DNA of 64,000 bases, taken from NCBI GenBank assembly GCA_043826455.1, contig JBDRQD010000002.1:26181-90180 (forward strand), in the 5' to 3' direction. The notes under the pieces are model-generated. The model did not search any database. It had not been told where the DNA came from and was given only the letters and a program-made list of their open reading frames with translations. The position numbers and the translations under genes were made by a program. Shown piece after piece: positions 54,308 to 63,765 of this stretch (positions within the stretch are counted from its first letter, which is position 1; every line of letters starts with the position of its first letter). Source of the DNA: Candidatus Bathyarchaeota archaeon (lineage in GTDB: Archaea > Thermoproteota > Bathyarchaeia > TCS64).

Positions 54308-54565
54308 CTACTTCTTACTGCTAAGGTAAGCGGCTATTGGGAGTATCACACACATGAAGAACGCCGAGGATACCGTAGTCCCGGCCTCGACGCCCCACGT
54401 GGGTATAACCACAAACTCGTTGACGGCGACCGCCAACACGGCCAGGGCGATGACCACGGGCGCAGCCCTATGCATCCCCAATCCGCCTCTCCTCACATGC
54501 GCGACGTAGGCGGCGCCCATCAACGCCACCGCGACACCGATTGCCCCTATTATCCAGACACTCAC
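54308..54565 (-). CDS. Small three-TM membrane protein
   Basis: Hydrophobic; GTG overlaps stop of the Xre gene. Confidence 0.65.
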
Positions 54566-54774
54566 TCTTTCTCACCTCCCTCGTCGTCCCACAGAAAAAG
54601 CTCGTCGATGGTGGCGCCCAGAGCCACGGCCACGTCGTGAGCCAGCTTCAGAGACGGGTTGTACTTGCCCGCCTCCAGGTAGACTATGGTCTCCCGCCTT
54701 ACCTTAACCCTCTTGGCCAGGTCCGCCTGAGTCATGTCGTGGCGGGCCCTCAGCTCCTTTATCCTGTTTCTCAT
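54562..54774 (-). CDS. Xre family HTH regulator
   Basis: [31 protein letters not shown]; start trimmed to ATG 54774. Confidence 0.92.
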
Positions 54775-54784
54775 GAGGCCACCC

Positions 54785-55120
54785 CTAAGTGGCTTCCTTG
54801 CGGTTGAAGTATGTGTAAAGGACGATGTAGCCAACGCTCATGAGGATGACCGCCGAGTTGATGACGGGCATAGAGCCCATCTCCTCCAGTCCCTGGAACT
54901 CTATGCGGTACATGTTGTAGAAGTTGAGGAGTATAAGGTACCATGTCCCCAGGTTGAAGGCAACCATCGCGGCCTTGCCCTGTATCCTTACGGTTCTCTC
55001 GTCCTGGAGAGGGAACCCGCTCCTCCTCTCCTTGATGGTTCTCCACAGCGAGTACGCCCCTATCGTCACTATTAGGAGCGCTACAATGGGTATCGCCGTT
55101 ATCCAGATGGTTTCAGCCAT
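54785..55120 (-). CDS. DUF2178-like membrane protein
   Basis: TM-DERT..I..KA-TM-TM pattern; adjacent to Xre gene. Confidence 0.75.
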
Positions 55121-55195: not shown

Positions 55196-55265
55196 TGATC
55201 TATTTAAGGATATTGGAAAAACGACAAGCGCCCTCAAACAGAGATGGGTCACAGAAGGCTAGGCT

Positions 55266-55382
55266 CTACTCTCCGGGAGGCGCCGCGACCTCACTGTGCT
55301 CCTTCTTGATGGTCACCTTGCCGCGTTTCAGCTTCCTCTTCTTAAATGAAGGGAAGAGGCCCTCATCCTTCTTATCAGACAA
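55266..55382 (-). CDS. Candidate Pup/UBact-like small protein modifier, 38 aa, C-terminal Gly-Glu
   Basis: Manual translation MSDKKDEGLFPSFKKRKLKRGKVTIKKEHSEVAAPPGE*; TTG start, GGGAGGT 6 nt upstream, 2 bp after the ligase-family gene. Confidence 0.72.
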   Translation of the reverse strand: MSDKKDEGLFPSFKKRKLKRGKVTIKKEHSEVAAPPGE

Positions 55383-55384
55383 TT

Positions 55385-56962
55385 CTAGACCTCCCTGTCA
55401 CGCCTCTCGTGGTCGTCCACAGGCTTGAACACTAGGTGGCCCCCAGTCCTGTTAAGCTTGTCTAGTGCGGCCGTGAACTCCATGAAGGTCCCAGCCGCTT
55501 CCTCAAGAGCGTCTCCACACATCTGCTTGTTGAAGATGAAAGGCTCGTCCAGGCGTATGGTGGCATTGTGGAAGTTTATCCTCTCCCACTCCACGGAGCT
55601 CAACATGCCGGGAAACTCCCTGGCCACCAGGCACCTGATGTACTCCCTGGTGCCCTCGGGGCCGCTCATCGTGGCGCGGGTCACCTTCTCGGGAAGGCTG
55701 TCCCAGTCCTCCCACGGGGCAGCGTCCCTGGCGAAGGCCAGCGAGTCATCGAGGCTGAAGGTCGTCTGGGTGTCCTCGGGGGCCTCGCCCAGGTACTGGA
55801 GGACTTCCCCGTCGAGGAGGGTGTACTGGTTGCAGATGCCTACGCCCTCCTCAAGGGCTCCAGAGTACTCCTCGATGAGGGCCTTCTTAGTAACCCAGTC
55901 GATGCCGTCGATGAAGTACTCCAGCCGGCGCTCCCCCAGGCCGTCTACCGTGGCCTGGATGAGGTTGAAGGCAGCCCTGTCAGCCTCATTGGGTGCTTCT
56001 TCGTCCATCATCTCCTCGATCCCGGCCAAGTAGAAGCCCTCAAGGATGTCGGCCAGGGCGTCACCGTGTCCGCCGCCCTCCAGGCGGACCTTCCAGTTGC
56101 ACTCCTCTGTGTCCACGGTCAGCTCCTTCATGGCGGCCACAGGGTCCGCCAGCCTCGGGGGGCTACCGTAGTAGCCTTTCTCGTAGGCCGTCATCACAAG
56201 GGTCTCCAGGCAGTCCCTGAGGTATACCTGGTAGGGGCTCCTGAGGCCCTCCCAGTTGATGTCGTGAAGCCTCCAATACTTCTCAGGGTCGGCGTGGGGG
56301 TCATCCCTCTGGTTGAGGATGCCCCTGGCGTCCACCGTGTCGTTGGACGACAGCCGCTTCACGAAGGCAGCCCTGGGGCTGATGACATAGCGTAGGCCTT
56401 CTCCCTTCATCACTTTCCCCGGTCGCGGAAGTGAACCGTCGCCTTTGCAAGGAACGTAGTCGCCGCCGCCGGTGAGAGGTATGCGGGCTACCATGAAGGG
56501 CGCCAGGGCTTTCTCAAGCCTGTCCCAGACCTGGGGGTTGCAGACCCTGCGGCTCATGAGTATGCTGGAGTGGGTCGAGTAGGAGACCGCCCTCCACTCC
56601 CCGTCTGCTCTGATGTTAGAGACGTTGTTCTTGTAGGCGTTCACGCCCCGGAAGTAGCTCTGGAGGCCCCTGGCCGCGTAGAAGCCGAAGAGCTCGGCCA
56701 CCTTGTCGTAGACCACGGCCTCCATAGGTGTGTTGTAGCTGGGGGAGGACAGCTCCAGGTGGCTCATGTCGTCGTAGACCCTGAAGCTGTTGTAGGCCAG
56801 GTAGTCCAGGCGGGGCTCCTCCACCCTTATGGAGGTCACGTACCCGGCCCGTCTCAGCTCCTCTATGGCCATCCCCACCAGGTGCACCAGGGAGCCGTGG
56901 GGGAGCTGGGGCCTGGTGTTCATGGCCAGCTCGTGTTCTACTCCCCGAATCTTGCTCTCCAT
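55385..56962 (-). CDS. Pup ligase/deamidase (PafA/Dop) family protein, paralogue 2
   Basis: GVEHE, VYDDMSHLELSSP, DKVAE, YKNNV, RGILNQRDDPHAD..Y.RLH, IDWVTKK; start trimmed to ATG 56962. Confidence 0.85.
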   Translation of the reverse strand: MESKIRGVEHELAMNTRPQLPHGSLVHLVGMAIEELRRAGYVTSIRVEEPRLDYLAYNSFRVYDDMSHLELSSPSYNTPMEAVVYDKVAELFGFYAARGLQSYFRGVNAYKNNVSNIRADGEWRAVSYSTHSSILMSRRVCNPQVWDRLEKALAPFMVARIPLTGGGDYVPCKGDGSLPRPGKVMKGEGLRYVISPRAAFVKRLSSNDTVDARGILNQRDDPHADPEKYWRLHDINWEGLRSPYQVYLRDCLETLVMTAYEKGYYGSPPRLADPVAAMKELTVDTEECNWKVRLEGGGHGDALADILEGFYLAGIEEMMDEEAPNEADRAAFNLIQATVDGLGERRLEYFIDGIDWVTKKALIEEYSGALEEGVGICNQYTLLDGEVLQYLGEAPEDTQTTFSLDDSLAFARDAAPWEDWDSLPEKVTRATMSGPEGTREYIRCLVAREFPGMLSSVEWERINFHNATIRLDEPFIFNKQMCGDALEEAAGTFMEFTAALDKLNRTGGHLVFKPVDDHERRDREV

Positions 56963-57053
56963 CAACCTCGTGTCCTCGAAACTGGGCGAATGGCTTCCAT
57001 GGGGTGATACAGTCTTTAACACTTACTACTGGCGAAATCATGCTTCAAGCCGG

Positions 57054-58430
57054 TCAGAGCTTGGCCTCTATCTCCGCTATCTTCCTCTCAATCTCTTGGC
57101 TTGTCCAGCCCCCCAGGGAGTTGAACTCGAAGGCGGGGTAATGTATCTCCGGCCTCAGCTTCAAGTGGGACCAGCTTATGGTCTTGACGTTGTCCCTGAG
57201 CCGCTCAGCCAGGGCCACCCTGAGCCTGCCTCTGCTCTCAAAGGGCGGCTCATTAAAAGCCCTCTCCACGTCGTCCTCGGACACCACAGTCTTCAGTCCG
57301 CGCCTCTCCACCAGCTCCTCGTAGAGGGGGTCCGTGACCGCCGTGTATTGAAACAGGGCAGCCTCCTTGGCGGCTTCAGGCCCCAGGCCCTCCTCCAGTT
57401 CGAACTCGTCCAGGCCCTCCTCGGCAAGCCTCTTCTTGATGACCCACTCGACGGAAGTGTCCAGGCTCTCTATATGGCCCTCGTCCAGCTTTCCCAGGAC
57501 CCACTTGAACATCCGCAGCGCCTCAAGGTCGTGGTCCCCCGGCTCGGCCTCCGAGAACACCTTCTCGACGGCGTCCAGATAATACGTGTTCAGGTAGTCC
57601 ACAGCCTTCATTCTTCCCCCGTCGGCCAGCGGGACCTCCCAGTCTCCCCGGAGGTTCATGGACATTACCTTGTTGGACTCGATGGGGTCCAGTACTTCGG
57701 GCACATGGGTGAGGTGCCCGGCCTCCAGCGCCTTGAGGACGTAGCCCGTGACGCTGTGCTTGAGGAACGTGGTGAGCTCCGACCTGGCCCCCTCTCCGTT
57801 AACTATATGCGCCCTCACATAGCCGTCCCCGGCGTGGGGCTCGTCCCGGGTGCTGACGATGGGGTAGTCGGTGCTCACCTCGCTGTAAACCTTCTTGGGG
57901 AAGATGACCCTGGGGCTCATCATATAGACTCCGTCCATGATCCCACCTGCTCCGCAGAAGACCTGCCTGAGGATCAGGTACGGCACCAGCAGGCTCTGTC
58001 CCTTGAGGTAGCTGCTCCTCTCCACCAGGTAGTTCTCGTGGCTTCCCACCGTAGTGTACCGCCGCTCACCCTTGGGGTCGGCGGCGATGTTAGTCTTGTA
58101 CAGGTGCACCAGCTGCCCCTTCTCCTCCTCGTGGGCCCACGAGGCCAGCCGGGCGTAGGCCTCACACGCCTTGTCGTAGGCCACCAGCTCCAGCGGGTTC
58201 CTGCACTCAGGGGTGCAGGCCTCGAAGAGGTTGGAGTGGACGTAGCAGAGGCCGCCGTTTCGTAGGAACGCCCTGGGCACGCCGTCGTCGGGCTTGAACA
58301 CGTATGCCCCCTTCCTCCCCAGGGCCTCGAAGAGCTCCACGGGCCGTGAGCCCGAGGCGTACTCCTGCTCGGCGCCCTGCCACAAGTCCAGAGACAATGG
58401 TACCCTGAATCTGGGCCCCGGATGCCTCAT
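57054..58430 (-). CDS. Pup ligase/deamidase (PafA/Dop) family protein, paralogue 1
   Basis: GAEQEY, FLRNGG, E..TPEC, DKACE, GSHENYL, RQVFCGAG, PIVSTRDEPHA, EWVIKK, PP..SRG.LR; start may be TTG 58397. Confidence 0.92.
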   Translation of the reverse strand: MRHPGPRFRVPLSLDLWQGAEQEYASGSRPVELFEALGRKGAYVFKPDDGVPRAFLRNGGLCYVHSNLFEACTPECRNPLELVAYDKACEAYARLASWAHEEEKGQLVHLYKTNIAADPKGERRYTTVGSHENYLVERSSYLKGQSLLVPYLILRQVFCGAGGIMDGVYMMSPRVIFPKKVYSEVSTDYPIVSTRDEPHAGDGYVRAHIVNGEGARSELTTFLKHSVTGYVLKALEAGHLTHVPEVLDPIESNKVMSMNLRGDWEVPLADGGRMKAVDYLNTYYLDAVEKVFSEAEPGDHDLEALRMFKWVLGKLDEGHIESLDTSVEWVIKKRLAEEGLDEFELEEGLGPEAAKEAALFQYTAVTDPLYEELVERRGLKTVVSEDDVERAFNEPPFESRGRLRVALAERLRDNVKTISWSHLKLRPEIHYPAFEFNSLGGWTSQEIERKIAEIEAKL

Positions 58431-58496
58431 ATAATTTGCGATCCGGGCGGTACGAGCCGTTAAATAATTACGGTAAATACATACAACTGTGGTTTT

Positions 58497-60206
58497 ATGG
58501 CGGGAAAGGTGCCGGACGAGCTCTTCGCGGACCTGGTCCTAGTGAACGGGAAGATCGTCACAGTGGACAAGTACGACACCATAGCGGAGGCCGTCGCGTG
58601 TAAGGGAGAGAAGATCATCAAGGTAGGCTCCACCGGTGAGGTGCGGGCCTACGCAGGCAAGCACACCAAGGTCATCGATCTTGGGGGGAAGCTGGTCACC
58701 CCGGGGTTCGTGGACACCCACGCCCACTTCAGCCACGGAGGCAGACGCGTCAGGACCGTTGACCTCCGCTACGTGCGGAGCATGGACGCCCTCATAGAGG
58801 AGCTGAGGAAGAAGGCCGAGGCTACGCCCGCGGGCCGATGGGTACAGGGCTACGGGTACAACGAGTCCAAGCTGAAGGAGAAGAGGTTCCCCAACAGGTA
58901 CGACCTGGACAAGGCGTCCACGGATCACCCCATCTCGGTGACACGGCAGGGGGGCCACGACGGGATGAGGGTCAACAGCCTGGCCCTGGAGCTGGCCGGC
59001 ATATCCAAGGACACCCCGGACCCGGAGCCCCCGTCCCTCATCGAGCGTGACCCAGAGACCGGGGAGCCCCTGGGCAACCTCCGGGAGGAGGCCGAGAAGC
59101 CGGTCCAGGACCTCATGGCCAAGGAGCCCCCCGTCACACGGGAGGAGATGAAGGAGGGTATACGGGACACCATCCGGCTGTTCCTGTCCTGGGGCATCAC
59201 CAGCCTCCAGGAGCCCGGCGCCCCCATGGACTTTTTACCCATTTACCAGGAGATGCTTAATGACGGCGAGTTCCCCATAAGGAACAGCTTCCTGATAGCG
59301 GCTCCCGCCATGGGGCGATCGTACTACCGGAACGAGAGGTACCAGCTAGCCGTGGACATCAGCGTGGAGGCTGGGTACATGACCCACTTCGGCGACAGCC
59401 ACCTCAAGTTCGCGGGCATCAAGCTTGGCCACGACGGCAGCATGAGCGCCGGCAACTGCGCCGTCTACGAGCCCTACCTCAACTACCCCACCCCGGACAA
59501 CTATGGCGTCGTCCACGGGTACACCAACGAGGAGCTGACCGACGGCAGGGCCCTCGCCGAGTTCGCCCCCCTGGTGGTGAAGCTACACGACGCGGGGATG
59601 AGGTGCGGCATAGGAGCCATCGGCGACAGGGGCATCGACTTCTTCCTGGACGCCATCGAGACGGCCCACAGCAAGAGCCCCAGGAAGGACGCCAGGCACA
59701 GCCTGGAGCACTGCAGCCTCCCTACGAAGAAGGGCCTGGAAAGGATGAAGCGGATGGACGTGACCAGCTCGACCTCAGTGGGCTTCGGCTGGGAGCTGGG
59801 GGACCAGCACAGAAGCTTCATGGGGATGGAGAGAATGAAGCGGTACATGCCCATGAGGAGCTTCAAGGAGATGGGCATAGTGGCCAGCGGCAACGCGGAC
59901 TGGCCCGTGTGCAGCGCTAATGTCGTGGAGGGCATCCACGTCTGCGTAAACAGGACCAGTGAGACGGGCCAGGACCTGAGCAGGAGCCAGGCCATAAGTG
60001 TAATGGACGCCATAAGGGTGTACACCTGGAACGGGGCGTACATCACCTTTGAGGAGGACATCAAGGGCAGCATCGAGCCCGGGAAGCTGGCCGACATGGT
60101 GGTTCTGGACACTGACATCCTTACTTGTCCCCCCGGGGACATAGTGAAGGCCAAGGCGCTCACCACCATCGTGGATGGCAGGGTGGTCTACCAGAGAGAT
60201 GGGTAG
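58497..60206 (+). CDS. Amidohydrolase_3 (YtcJ-like) protein
   Basis: PGFVDTHAH, NSLAL..AGI, KL..DGS, EH, KGSIEPGKLAD. Confidence 0.92.
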   Translation: MAGKVPDELFADLVLVNGKIVTVDKYDTIAEAVACKGEKIIKVGSTGEVRAYAGKHTKVIDLGGKLVTPGFVDTHAHFSHGGRRVRTVDLRYVRSMDALIEELRKKAEATPAGRWVQGYGYNESKLKEKRFPNRYDLDKASTDHPISVTRQGGHDGMRVNSLALELAGISKDTPDPEPPSLIERDPETGEPLGNLREEAEKPVQDLMAKEPPVTREEMKEGIRDTIRLFLSWGITSLQEPGAPMDFLPIYQEMLNDGEFPIRNSFLIAAPAMGRSYYRNERYQLAVDISVEAGYMTHFGDSHLKFAGIKLGHDGSMSAGNCAVYEPYLNYPTPDNYGVVHGYTNEELTDGRALAEFAPLVVKLHDAGMRCGIGAIGDRGIDFFLDAIETAHSKSPRKDARHSLEHCSLPTKKGLERMKRMDVTSSTSVGFGWELGDQHRSFMGMERMKRYMPMRSFKEMGIVASGNADWPVCSANVVEGIHVCVNRTSETGQDLSRSQAISVMDAIRVYTWNGAYITFEEDIKGSIEPGKLADMVVLDTDILTCPPGDIVKAKALTTIVDGRVVYQRDG

Positions 60207-62848: not shown

Positions 62849-62963
62849 TTTTCTATTTTCGATCATAATACCCCGTAAAATGGTGTATTGTGACCAGAAA
62901 CAGAAATAATTATTAGCCGATGCGAAGATACTACCCCCTAGAAAGGGGTATAATGATCAAAAT
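62849..62963. promoter_or_regulatory. Two inverted repeats with 7-bp spacers upstream of abiEi
   Basis: Arms 62849-62874 / 62882-62907 (19/26 complementary); second TACCCC-N7-GGGGTA whose right arm 62945-62963 complements the first left arm at 16/19. Confidence 0.65.
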
Positions 62964-63765
62964 GAGTAACATCGAAAGCACCTACACGTGGCTGCTCCAG
63001 CAAAACACAGCTACAATCCAGGAAATCACAGAGCAATACAGGGAGCACAATGAGGCAGCCACAGCGAAATACGTCTACGACAAAGTGATCACTCCAATGA
63101 TCAGGCAGGGCAGAGCCCAGCGCATCCGCCGTGGCCTCTACACGGCGGTCGACCCCTTGACAGGGAAACCGGCTGCCGACTCCATAATAGTAGCCAGCAA
63201 ACTCAGGCCTGAGTACTACCTGGGTTACCACACCGCTCTAACCCTTCACGGGGCAGCATACAGCGCCTCCACGCAGACCCAGGTATGTGTTAAGCCCCGT
63301 GACAACTTCAGGGAGTTCAACATCGGCGGCAACACGATAAAACCGGTATACACAAGCGACACAGAGACCAGTATCCAGGCTCTCCGCTACCGTGGATACA
63401 GCGTCAGGGTCTGCGGCAAGGAGAGGCTCCTCATAGAGTGTCTCGACAAGCCCAAACATGTTGGGGGGTGGGAGCAGACTCTGAAGAGCTTGGAAACCTT
63501 GGGTGGCGTCGAGTACCAGCAGATACCGGGGCTGCTAAGGATGATCGGTAACCAGAAGCAGACACGCGTCACGGGCTATGTACTGGAGCTGCTTAGGCAG
63601 CACAGCGTCTACCACCGCCACCTCCCCGAGGACACACTGAATGCGCTTGAGGGCATGGTGGAGGGGCCGCCCACGTACCTGGTCAGGGGCGTCCCCGGGC
63701 CGCTGGACAGGCGGTGGAGGCTGTACATCCCTGAGTACTTCGCAGGCCTTCTCCGAGGAATCTGA
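62953..63765 (+). CDS. abiEi: Type IV TA antitoxin AbiEi family
   Basis: N-terminal wHTH RIRRGLY, YLGYHTAL..HG, ERLLIECLD.P...GG; start ATG 62953 or 62962. Confidence 0.88.
   Translation: MIKMSNIESTYTWLLQQNTATIQEITEQYREHNEAATAKYVYDKVITPMIRQGRAQRIRRGLYTAVDPLTGKPAADSIIVASKLRPEYYLGYHTALTLHGAAYSASTQTQVCVKPRDNFREFNIGGNTIKPVYTSDTETSIQALRYRGYSVRVCGKERLLIECLDKPKHVGGWEQTLKSLETLGGVEYQQIPGLLRMIGNQKQTRVTGYVLELLRQHSVYHRHLPEDTLNALEGMVEGPPTYLVRGVPGPLDRRWRLYIPEYFAGLLRGI

Follow-up and report, generated by a model that had tools for sequence, protein, structure and literature searches.

A short, lysine-rich peptide encoded behind tandem Pup_ligase-family genes is a candidate Pup-like tag in Bathyarchaeia and other archaea

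The protein tags known from archaea have a ubiquitin fold (SAMPs, Urm1 and the Caldiarchaeum ubiquitin), and we know of no archaeal ligases of the glutamine synthetase (GS) fold that work with a disordered tag. One familiar small protein of archaea, LysW, has the side chain of its C-terminal glutamate joined to an amine at the expense of ATP, with LysX and ArgX as partners. In bacteria, UBact, said to have been described by Lehmann et al. in 2017, is reportedly a small Pup-analogous protein encoded beside homologues of PafA and Dop, with a Ser/Thr-Gly-Glu/Gln terminus and basic residues close to it; its hosts are said to be Nitrospirota, Verrucomicrobiota and other Gram-negative bacteria, and reports of it are apparently from bacteria only. 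Pupylation itself is called a 'unique bacterial' pathway in the accessible text of a 2025 study (PMC12053664); that of a 2020 survey of the pupylation family treats bacterial phyla only and does not contain the word archaea (PMC7947786), and that of a 2025 minireview mentions archaea once, for their proteasomes only (PMC12288473). We found no description of an archaeal Pup-like system in the searchable literature, a scope that does not include subscription journals. Here we analyse a 38-codon open reading frame (ORF) in 64,000 nucleotides of the genome of an uncultured Candidatus Bathyarchaeota archaeon (assembly GCA_043826455.1, contig JBDRQD010000002.1, positions 26,181 to 90,180 of the forward strand), a stretch referred to below as the window. 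The ORF directly follows two tandem genes of the Pup_ligase family, called A and B here. In our analysis its product is very probably a substrate of these two enzymes and, with somewhat less confidence, a Pup-like tag that would be activated at its terminal glutamate and joined to lysines. The features concerned are the following.

55266..55382, minus strand: candidate tag gene, 38 codons by translation, stop codon included in the coordinates; the product ends ...EHSEVAAPPGE.
55389..55395, minus strand: Shine-Dalgarno-like GGGAGGT in the 3'-terminal part of gene B, 6 nt ahead of the TTG with which the tag gene starts.
55385..57022, minus strand: enzyme B, Pup_ligase family (PF03136, E-value 9.4e-48, 163.7 bits), 545 aa from the first GTG.
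57054..58430, minus strand: enzyme A, Pup_ligase paralogue (PF03136, E-value 1.2e-70, 239.1 bits), 458 aa.

Translated from minus-strand positions 55382..55266, the peptide reads (M/L)SDKKDEGLFPSFKKRKLKRGKVTIKKEHSEVAAPPGE*. Its start codon is a TTG at 55382-55380, 2 nt past the TAG stop of gene B, which is the second of the two tandem Pup_ligase genes. Direct reading confirms the 38-aa ORF that the first-pass annotation had described with a TTG start and a GGGAGGT Shine-Dalgarno sequence, and places it on the minus strand, which that annotation had left unnamed. The peptide had also been called basic, with 9 Lys and 2 Arg and a PPGE end, and its translation agrees (9 Lys, 2 Arg, 2 Asp and 4 Glu; calculated pI 9.9). 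It is short, Lys-rich and probably disordered, and its gene is shorter than usual gene-calling lengths.

The pattern of conservation indicates that this ORF is a genuine gene. Our genome collection holds 18 loci that encode a relative of B, 14 of them with downstream DNA, and a small frame follows the B orthologue in all 14. Eleven are Bathyarchaeia-type, with a B identity of 63-76% and the tag consensus M[ST][DE]KK..LFPSFKKRKLKR.K..IKKEH.EVVAPPG[EQ]; the other three are Methanomethylicia-type, with a B identity of 35-38%, the A-B-small order kept and the tag MSEI.LPSFKRK...DKKLKKEHSEV[VI]APPGE. When 15 tag peptides are aligned (alignment A1), 11 columns are invariant (M1, P11, S12, F13, K14, K27, H29, A34, P35, P36 and G37) and the last residue is always E or Q. 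In the relatives an ATG, GTG or TTG serves as the start codon at the aligned position, preceded in every case by a GGAGG- or GAGGTG-like site, and it overlaps the stop of B by 1 or 4 nt in 9 of the 15 loci, lying 2-6 nt beyond it in the others. The phase of the tag frame relative to B therefore differs among loci, which excludes a read-through tail of B; with its own ribosome-binding site also in view, we rejected the idea that the tag is a read-through or frameshift extension.

Selection on the peptide, which the first-pass annotation had proposed to measure across relatives, proved strongly purifying. Fifteen distinct 90-nt tag cores gave a mean proportion of nonsynonymous differences (pN) of 0.11 against 0.71 for synonymous ones (pS), and the median ratio of nonsynonymous to synonymous rates (dN/dS) was 0.064 across 42 unsaturated pairs; the cores were chosen by motif, which lowers dN somewhat, yet the ORF is found in every assessable locus of the clade. 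PF03136 occurs in 14 of 401 sampled Thermoproteota genomes, the window's own included, and among the other 13 all 12 that could be assessed carry an ORF behind B, one variant being 27 aa long and ending ...EIHSEVVAPSGE.

A scan of metagenomes extended this picture. It yielded 80 loci, 69 of them with at least 250 nt downstream of B, and a frame ending in [AS][PTS][PSA]G[EQ] lies within reach of the end of B in 66 of the 69; this ending is absent from all 9,719 other stop-to-stop frames of at least 25 codons in these loci. Searched against 1.84 billion representative proteins, the A1 profile returned only 6 matches at E-values up to 0.001, with lengths of 32-47 aa; all six aligned through the final residue, with endings APPGE, APSGE or SSPGQ, and no fused or longer form was among them. 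Glu is the last residue of 41 among 51 distinct tails and Gln that of the other 10, of which nine read APPGQ, all Bathyarchaeia-type, and one reads ATSGQ. The penultimate residue is G in all 51, and the residue preceding it is P, S or A, never G. The first-pass annotation had staked its proposal on conservation of the ORF and of its terminal Gly-Glu; we find both the ORF and a terminal G[EQ] kept across three archaeal lineages.

Both enzymes score above the Pfam gathering cut-off for PF03136 (25 bits), and they are the sole two PF03136 genes in the genome (2.95 Mb in 81 contigs, estimated contamination 7.2%). They are 27.6% identical to each other, and relatives of B point to a start about 20 codons after the first GTG. 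In public databases the enzymes go by the name 'proteasome accessory factor PafA2 family protein'. The best solved relative is Dop for both (1.2e-36 for A and 1.9e-24 for B), with matches to solved PafA at 1.2e-26 and 3.6e-10, respectively. Neither enzyme reaches the equivalog cut-off for PafA (TIGR03686, 551.3; A 173.8 bits, B 93) or for Dop (TIGR03688, 492.3; A 191.6 bits, B 137.9); genuine PafA and Dop of Nonomuraea, run as controls, score 751 and 786, respectively. Enzyme A matches 1,473 proteins, and among the best 120 of these nearly all are labelled archaeal or unnamed.

Enzyme B retains the catalytic equipment of the family. It keeps the ExE strand, R81-x-Y83-x-D85 (equivalent to Dop R90, Y92 and D94), H88/E90, H151, T229, R233 and RDDPH; E29, E31, R81, Y83, D85, H88, E90, H151, T229, R233, R239 and H243 are invariant among 58 homologues, and Arg and Asp stand at the positions of Dop R90 and D94 in all 101 distinct sequences that cover the motif. 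According to the accessible text of a published account, in Dop R90 binds the nucleotide and D94 activates the water used for hydrolysis, and the last residue of Pup is held by T217 of Dop and R201 of PafA (PMC8599861). T217 and R201 have T229 and R233 as their aligned counterparts in B, and the catalytic Asp of Dop (D94) corresponds to D64 of PafA. The Dop-loop, defined in that same text as 40-65 residues preceding strand beta-2 (PMC8599861), is missing from both A and B of the window; B of Methanomethylicia and of the G240 type has an insert of about 20 aa at this site.

Co-folding with each enzyme had been suggested in the first-pass annotation; we ran it for the adjacent enzyme B, and the prediction placed the C-terminus of the tag in B's active site. 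With a 58-row alignment of B (A3) and the peptide alignment A1 as inputs, the interaction prediction score from aligned errors (ipSAE) was 0.59, 0.71 and 0.71 (median 0.71), compared with 0.01 for the best of three controls; of 157 solved complexes 116 attain the mark used for such models, as do 2 of 215 mismatched pairs. At least 96% of contacts are common to the runs, and the predicted local distance difference test (pLDDT) score of the peptide is at least 68. On the peptide side the predicted interface comprises residues 8-20 and 23-38, and on the side of B it includes E31, 85-88 (with the catalytic Asp85), 146-149, H151, 229-230 and the conserved segment 395-402. The invariant His29 of the tag is predicted to pack on 395-402, and its C-terminal tail to touch the catalytic motifs. 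As a prediction, the model supports binding of the tag to B in the manner of Pup. That the ORF encodes a modifier candidate for its neighbouring enzymes, as originally suggested, gains support from this model together with the conserved ORF and terminal G[EQ] and the purifying selection.

Other metagenome loci carry a third version of the system; their B shares 58-86% identity with proteins labelled Methanospirareceae, Alkanophagales or Methanomicrobia at NCBI, and we call these loci ANME-1-like, after the anaerobic methanotrophic (ANME) archaea. Their tag reads ...SIMERLKKREKKEKAA.LVSKLKGKKK.NKKIMPYEIYAT[SA]G[EQ], possibly with an acidic N-terminal extension that would bring it to about 75 aa in total. 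In four of these loci (L056, L058, L078 and L080) the tag frame is open upstream into a Glu-rich acidic stretch, and an upstream ATG there would give about 74-83 aa with an acidic N-terminus and a basic C-terminus, nearer the length of Pup. The operon order is ATPase (490-545 aa), A, B, tag; A is present in 38 of 39 ANME-1-like loci, and the ATPase heads the operon in all 33 with DNA upstream of A. The families that this ATPase matches best are the proteasome-activating nucleotidase and the Pup-system ATPase, both below cut-off, and from its N-terminus it reads as a heptad-like helix, a Pro-Pro and an OB-like segment followed by the AAA domain. That an ATPase heads the ANME-1-like operon, in a gene order like that of bacterial mpa-dop-pup, is our chief ground for taking the family as a whole to be protein tags and not precursors of a metabolite. 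The link to a proteasome or unfoldase is one that gene content supports in the ANME-1-like clade only.

Which paralogue would do what is harder to say. In a maximum-likelihood tree (IQ-TREE), PafA and Dop are split from A and B with 100/100 support, and A and B each form one clade; the tree has 27 rows and 445 columns, with three bacterial rows only (PafA and Dop of Nonomuraea and a partial Dop of Tsukamurella) and long branches. As far as this tree goes, A and B appear to have arisen by a duplication separate from that of PafA and Dop, and their roles therefore cannot be read from orthology; an assignment of A as PafA and B as Dop was rejected on the tree. We lean, by a modest degree, toward B as the enzyme that activates and ligates the tag and A as a deamidase/deconjugase or a regulator. 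Counting against a ligase role for B, it scores more Dop-like than PafA-like, in the ANME type too, it adjoins the tag as dop adjoins pup, and in two clades it has the insert at the Dop-loop site.

A mechanism modelled on Pup can be proposed. The peptide would dock in a groove of B, with its invariant His29 and PSFK motif on the enzyme surface and its C-terminal Pro-Pro-Gly-Glu extending to the ATP/Mg site. ATP would phosphorylate the terminal Glu on its side-chain carboxylate, and the epsilon-amine of a target-protein lysine would attack the acyl-phosphate to give an isopeptide bond, as PafA does with Pup. Gln-ending tags of relatives would be deamidated beforehand, as Dop does with Pup, and A would serve as a deamidase/deconjugase or a regulatory partner. 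In this scheme we infer the chemistry, the lysine acceptor, the assignment of steps to the paralogues and the fate of tagged proteins. The first-pass annotation had argued that a terminal Glu needs no deamidation; this holds for the Glu-ending copy in the window but does not extend to the family, 10 of whose 51 distinct tails end in Gln, so that the family as a whole needs a deamidase.

A number of observations weigh against reading the peptide as a Pup-like tag that serves A and B. Several concern enzyme A. In its motif in the window, GGLCYVHSNLFE, His replaces the catalytic Asp and Leu replaces the nucleotide-binding Arg, and whichever the clade, the Arg with which PafA and Dop pair the C-terminus of Pup has given way to an aromatic residue. 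At the catalytic-Asp position, all 25 sequences of the window's clade have His and have lost the nucleotide-binding Arg as well, all 20 Methanomethylicia and G240-type sequences have Asp, and all 31 ANME-1-like sequences have Cys. Because A of the window's clade lacks the catalytic Asp and the nucleotide-binding Arg, and A of every clade lacks the Arg that pairs with the C-terminus, a division of labour in the style of PafA and Dop is uncertain. Asp, His and Cys are each of a type used in catalysis, which makes A look like a working enzyme of divergent chemistry and not a dead one.

Other points on the same side concern the peptide and its setting. Neither the window peptide nor six relatives matched any Pfam or NCBIfam family, the Pup models included, at E-values up to 10, hhalign of A1 against Nonomuraea Pup gave a probability of 0.1%, and Pup of Nonomuraea gerenzanensis, as a control, matched TIGR03687 at 8.9e-21. 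Most clades have tags of 27-47 aa, compared with about 64-69 aa in Pup; the tag is basic (pI 9.9), in contrast to acidic Pup (pI 4.2 in Nonomuraea), and its tail is [AS][PTS][PSA]G[EQ] with a single Gly, as opposed to GG[EQ]. The first-pass description of the peptide as shorter than Pup and unlike it in sequence is thus accurate. The solved structures of PafA-Pup and Dop-Pup may account for part of the co-folding score. Next to none of the words of positions 55200-58450 were found in three metatranscriptome runs from the same study. Three of the 69 metagenome loci have no small ORF: two of these (L063 and L101) have B-type genes in a different context, with neither A nor tag, and one (L093) has the full operon with no recognisable tag within 600 nt. 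Finally, no AAA or unfoldase gene lies near the system in the window's genome, and a query with the ANME-type ATPase found only two Cdc48-like genes, away from the system, with no PAN-like single-AAA match returned. The four proteasome-subunit genes all lie on contigs other than that of the tag system. We therefore rejected a proteasome link in this genome, and with no unfoldase adjoining the system a role in degradation is unsupported here.

How these observations are best explained depends on what else the peptide could be. It could be a substrate of the enzymes and not a protein tag, with its Glu joined to a lysine of its own, as in a macrolactam resembling a ribosomally synthesized and post-translationally modified peptide (RiPP), or to a small amine, the peptide then acting as a scaffold or carrier like LysW, which bears amino acids on its C-terminal Glu. 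We think this unlikely, although nine of the 38 residues are Lys, K14 and K27 among them being invariant, the system in this genome has neither an unfoldase nor a proteasome gene beside it, and an amidohydrolase is a conserved neighbour in the window's clade. In addition, GS-fold carboxylate-amine ligases also use small amines, according to the accessible text of the 2020 survey (PMC7947786). However, Pfam annotation of neighbours in 13 loci from three clades revealed no conserved exporter, leader protease or further tailoring gene, and the neighbours differ wholly between clades, so no biosynthetic pathway travels along with the system. The PAN/Mpa-like unfoldase at the head of the operon in 33 of 33 ANME-1-like loci fits protein tagging, and the alternation of E and Q with paired paralogues matches the logic of Pup. 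The RiPP-like or self-cyclised product raised in the first-pass annotation is thus weakened by gene context, and we keep it as a rival.

Less probable still, to the point of being a poor bet, is a purely non-covalent role at B, in which the peptide would be a regulator, pseudo-substrate or assembly factor and would never undergo ligation. Co-folding speaks to binding alone and not to chemistry, and the peptide is far shorter than Pup, both of which suit such a role. Mere binding, however, needs no invariant terminal G[EQ], the feature of Pup that bears the chemistry; the interchange of Gln and Glu at the end implies side-chain chemistry, and B retains every catalytic motif in 101 of 101 sequences. 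As for a chance frame, or an untranslated 3' region of the B transcript, the ORF is indeed very short and begins with TTG, yet we give this explanation almost no credence: the peptide is conserved at the protein level where B is only 35-40% identical (pN 0.11 against pS 0.71), its start varies between ATG, GTG and TTG behind a ribosome-binding site, its motif is found in none of the 9,719 background frames, and its phase relative to B differs between loci. A Pup-like tag therefore remains the reading that we prefer.

The surroundings of the system in the window include the following further features.

55217..55221, minus strand: run of five Ts about 45 nt past the tag stop, a candidate archaeal terminator or operon end.
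58497..60206, plus strand: Amidohydro_3 gene (PF07969, E-value 7e-91), divergent from A.
54562-54834, minus strand: HTH_3 regulator which, with a DUF2178-like membrane protein, lies just past the tag gene; no link in other loci.
62920-63765, plus strand: AbiEi-antitoxin-like gene near the window end; no link to the system in other loci.

Archaea use oligo-T terminators, and it is for this reason that we read the five-T run as one. The tag gene is followed by genes for a small membrane protein and the HTH_3 regulator and by an 85-aa ORF. The Amidohydro_3 gene stands divergently beside A in 19 of 23 loci of the window's clade with upstream DNA, at 64-94% identity, often above that of A; it was not found beside the system in the Methanomethylicia or ANME-1-like loci examined. 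The gene may stand there through inherited synteny or as a clade-specific helper. It is conceivable, and only a lead, that the amidohydrolase acts as a deamidase, given the Gln-ending tags and the altered A. In one locus (L124) the Amidohydro_3 gene and B are immediate neighbours, with A not intervening. One of the two Cdc48-like double-AAA genes of the window's genome (G000:C35:4453-5856) lies about 2 kb from a proteasome subunit gene (C35:7728-8279).

Variations on the arrangement were seen in individual loci. Two Bathyarchaeia loci (L022:2165-3883 and L020) have an ORF of 572 aa between A and B that matches nothing in Pfam or NCBIfam, and a homologue of it, 35% identical, lies elsewhere in the window's genome (G000:C15:273694-275157). 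In a Methanomethylicales locus (L019:2451-3554, minus strand) a TnpB-like gene (OrfB_IS605 and Cas12f1-like TNB) takes the place of A upstream of B; in this genome (G224) A and B are on separate contigs, and the tag stays with B. The lone B-type Pup_ligase of L063 and L101 belongs to the ANME-1-like group, is also without the ATPase, and may be a paralogue with another role; in L063 (1978-4822) it lies directly behind a YcaO cyclodehydratase gene and ahead of a deoxyhypusine synthase. The sequences of some close relatives of A and B (L008, DATLAV010000181.1; P0224; P0165) place them within the Bathyarchaeia clade, although their source labels are 'Patescibacteria group bacterium' or 'Promethearchaeota archaeon'; the labels probably stem from binning and not from transfers.

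The Bathyarchaeia version of the system has a 38-aa tag with an E or Q ending, an enzyme A with His for Asp, no linked unfoldase and a linked amidohydrolase. It is tempting to speculate that some archaea possess a tagging of the pupylation type, independent of the PafA/Dop pair in origin or in divergence, with very short polybasic tags and a changed second enzyme, although taken as a whole this is a doubtful proposition. If the peptide is indeed a tag, a second, unrelated tagging chemistry would be added to archaeal proteostasis in at least three lineages, with a bearing on the origin of pupylation. The Asp, His and Cys variants of A would then be a natural experiment on the catalytic Asp of the family, and the exchange of Asp for His or Cys would imply a new chemistry, for example covalent acyl-enzyme transfer (thioester or acyl-imidazole) or an ATP-independent isopeptidase. 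The Bathyarchaeia system would run without a dedicated unfoldase, and its tag may then serve a purpose other than degradation. Very small natural tags (27-47 aa) with matching ligases would also be at hand for proximity labelling of the PUP-IT kind.

Compared with described systems, the archaeal peptide shares a carrier-like feature with LysW, in that both are small archaeal proteins with a C-terminal Glu. The partner of LysW is, however, an ATP-grasp enzyme and not a GS-fold Pup_ligase, and LysW is an acidic zinc ribbon encoded in a lysine/arginine biosynthesis cluster, none of which was seen for the archaeal tag. Tails such as ...ATSGE and ...APSGE are reminiscent of the reported UBact tail, a likeness by description only.

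The resemblance to the Pup system (TIGR03687/PF05639) goes further. The archaeal tag, too, is small, ends in Gly-Glu/Gln and is encoded directly behind a Pup_ligase-family gene; the alternation of E and Q at its end parallels PupE and PupQ; and its C-terminus is predicted to dock at the ExE, R-x-Y-x-D and His motifs. Like PafA and Dop, the two enzymes are paralogues with a GS fold. The ANME-1-like operon is headed by a coiled-coil/OB/AAA ATPase, comparable to bacterial mpa/arc, and its gene order resembles the bacterial mpa-dop-pup arrangement. The archaeal system differs in its host, in the His, Cys or Asp that paralogue A bears at the catalytic-Asp site and, in the window's genome, in having no linked unfoldase or proteasome gene. 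The peptide is most likely a Pup-like tag of a new sequence family in archaea, one that stands outside the Pup family by sequence, length, charge and the GG motif and shares with it only the terminal G[EQ], the small size and the genomic partner.

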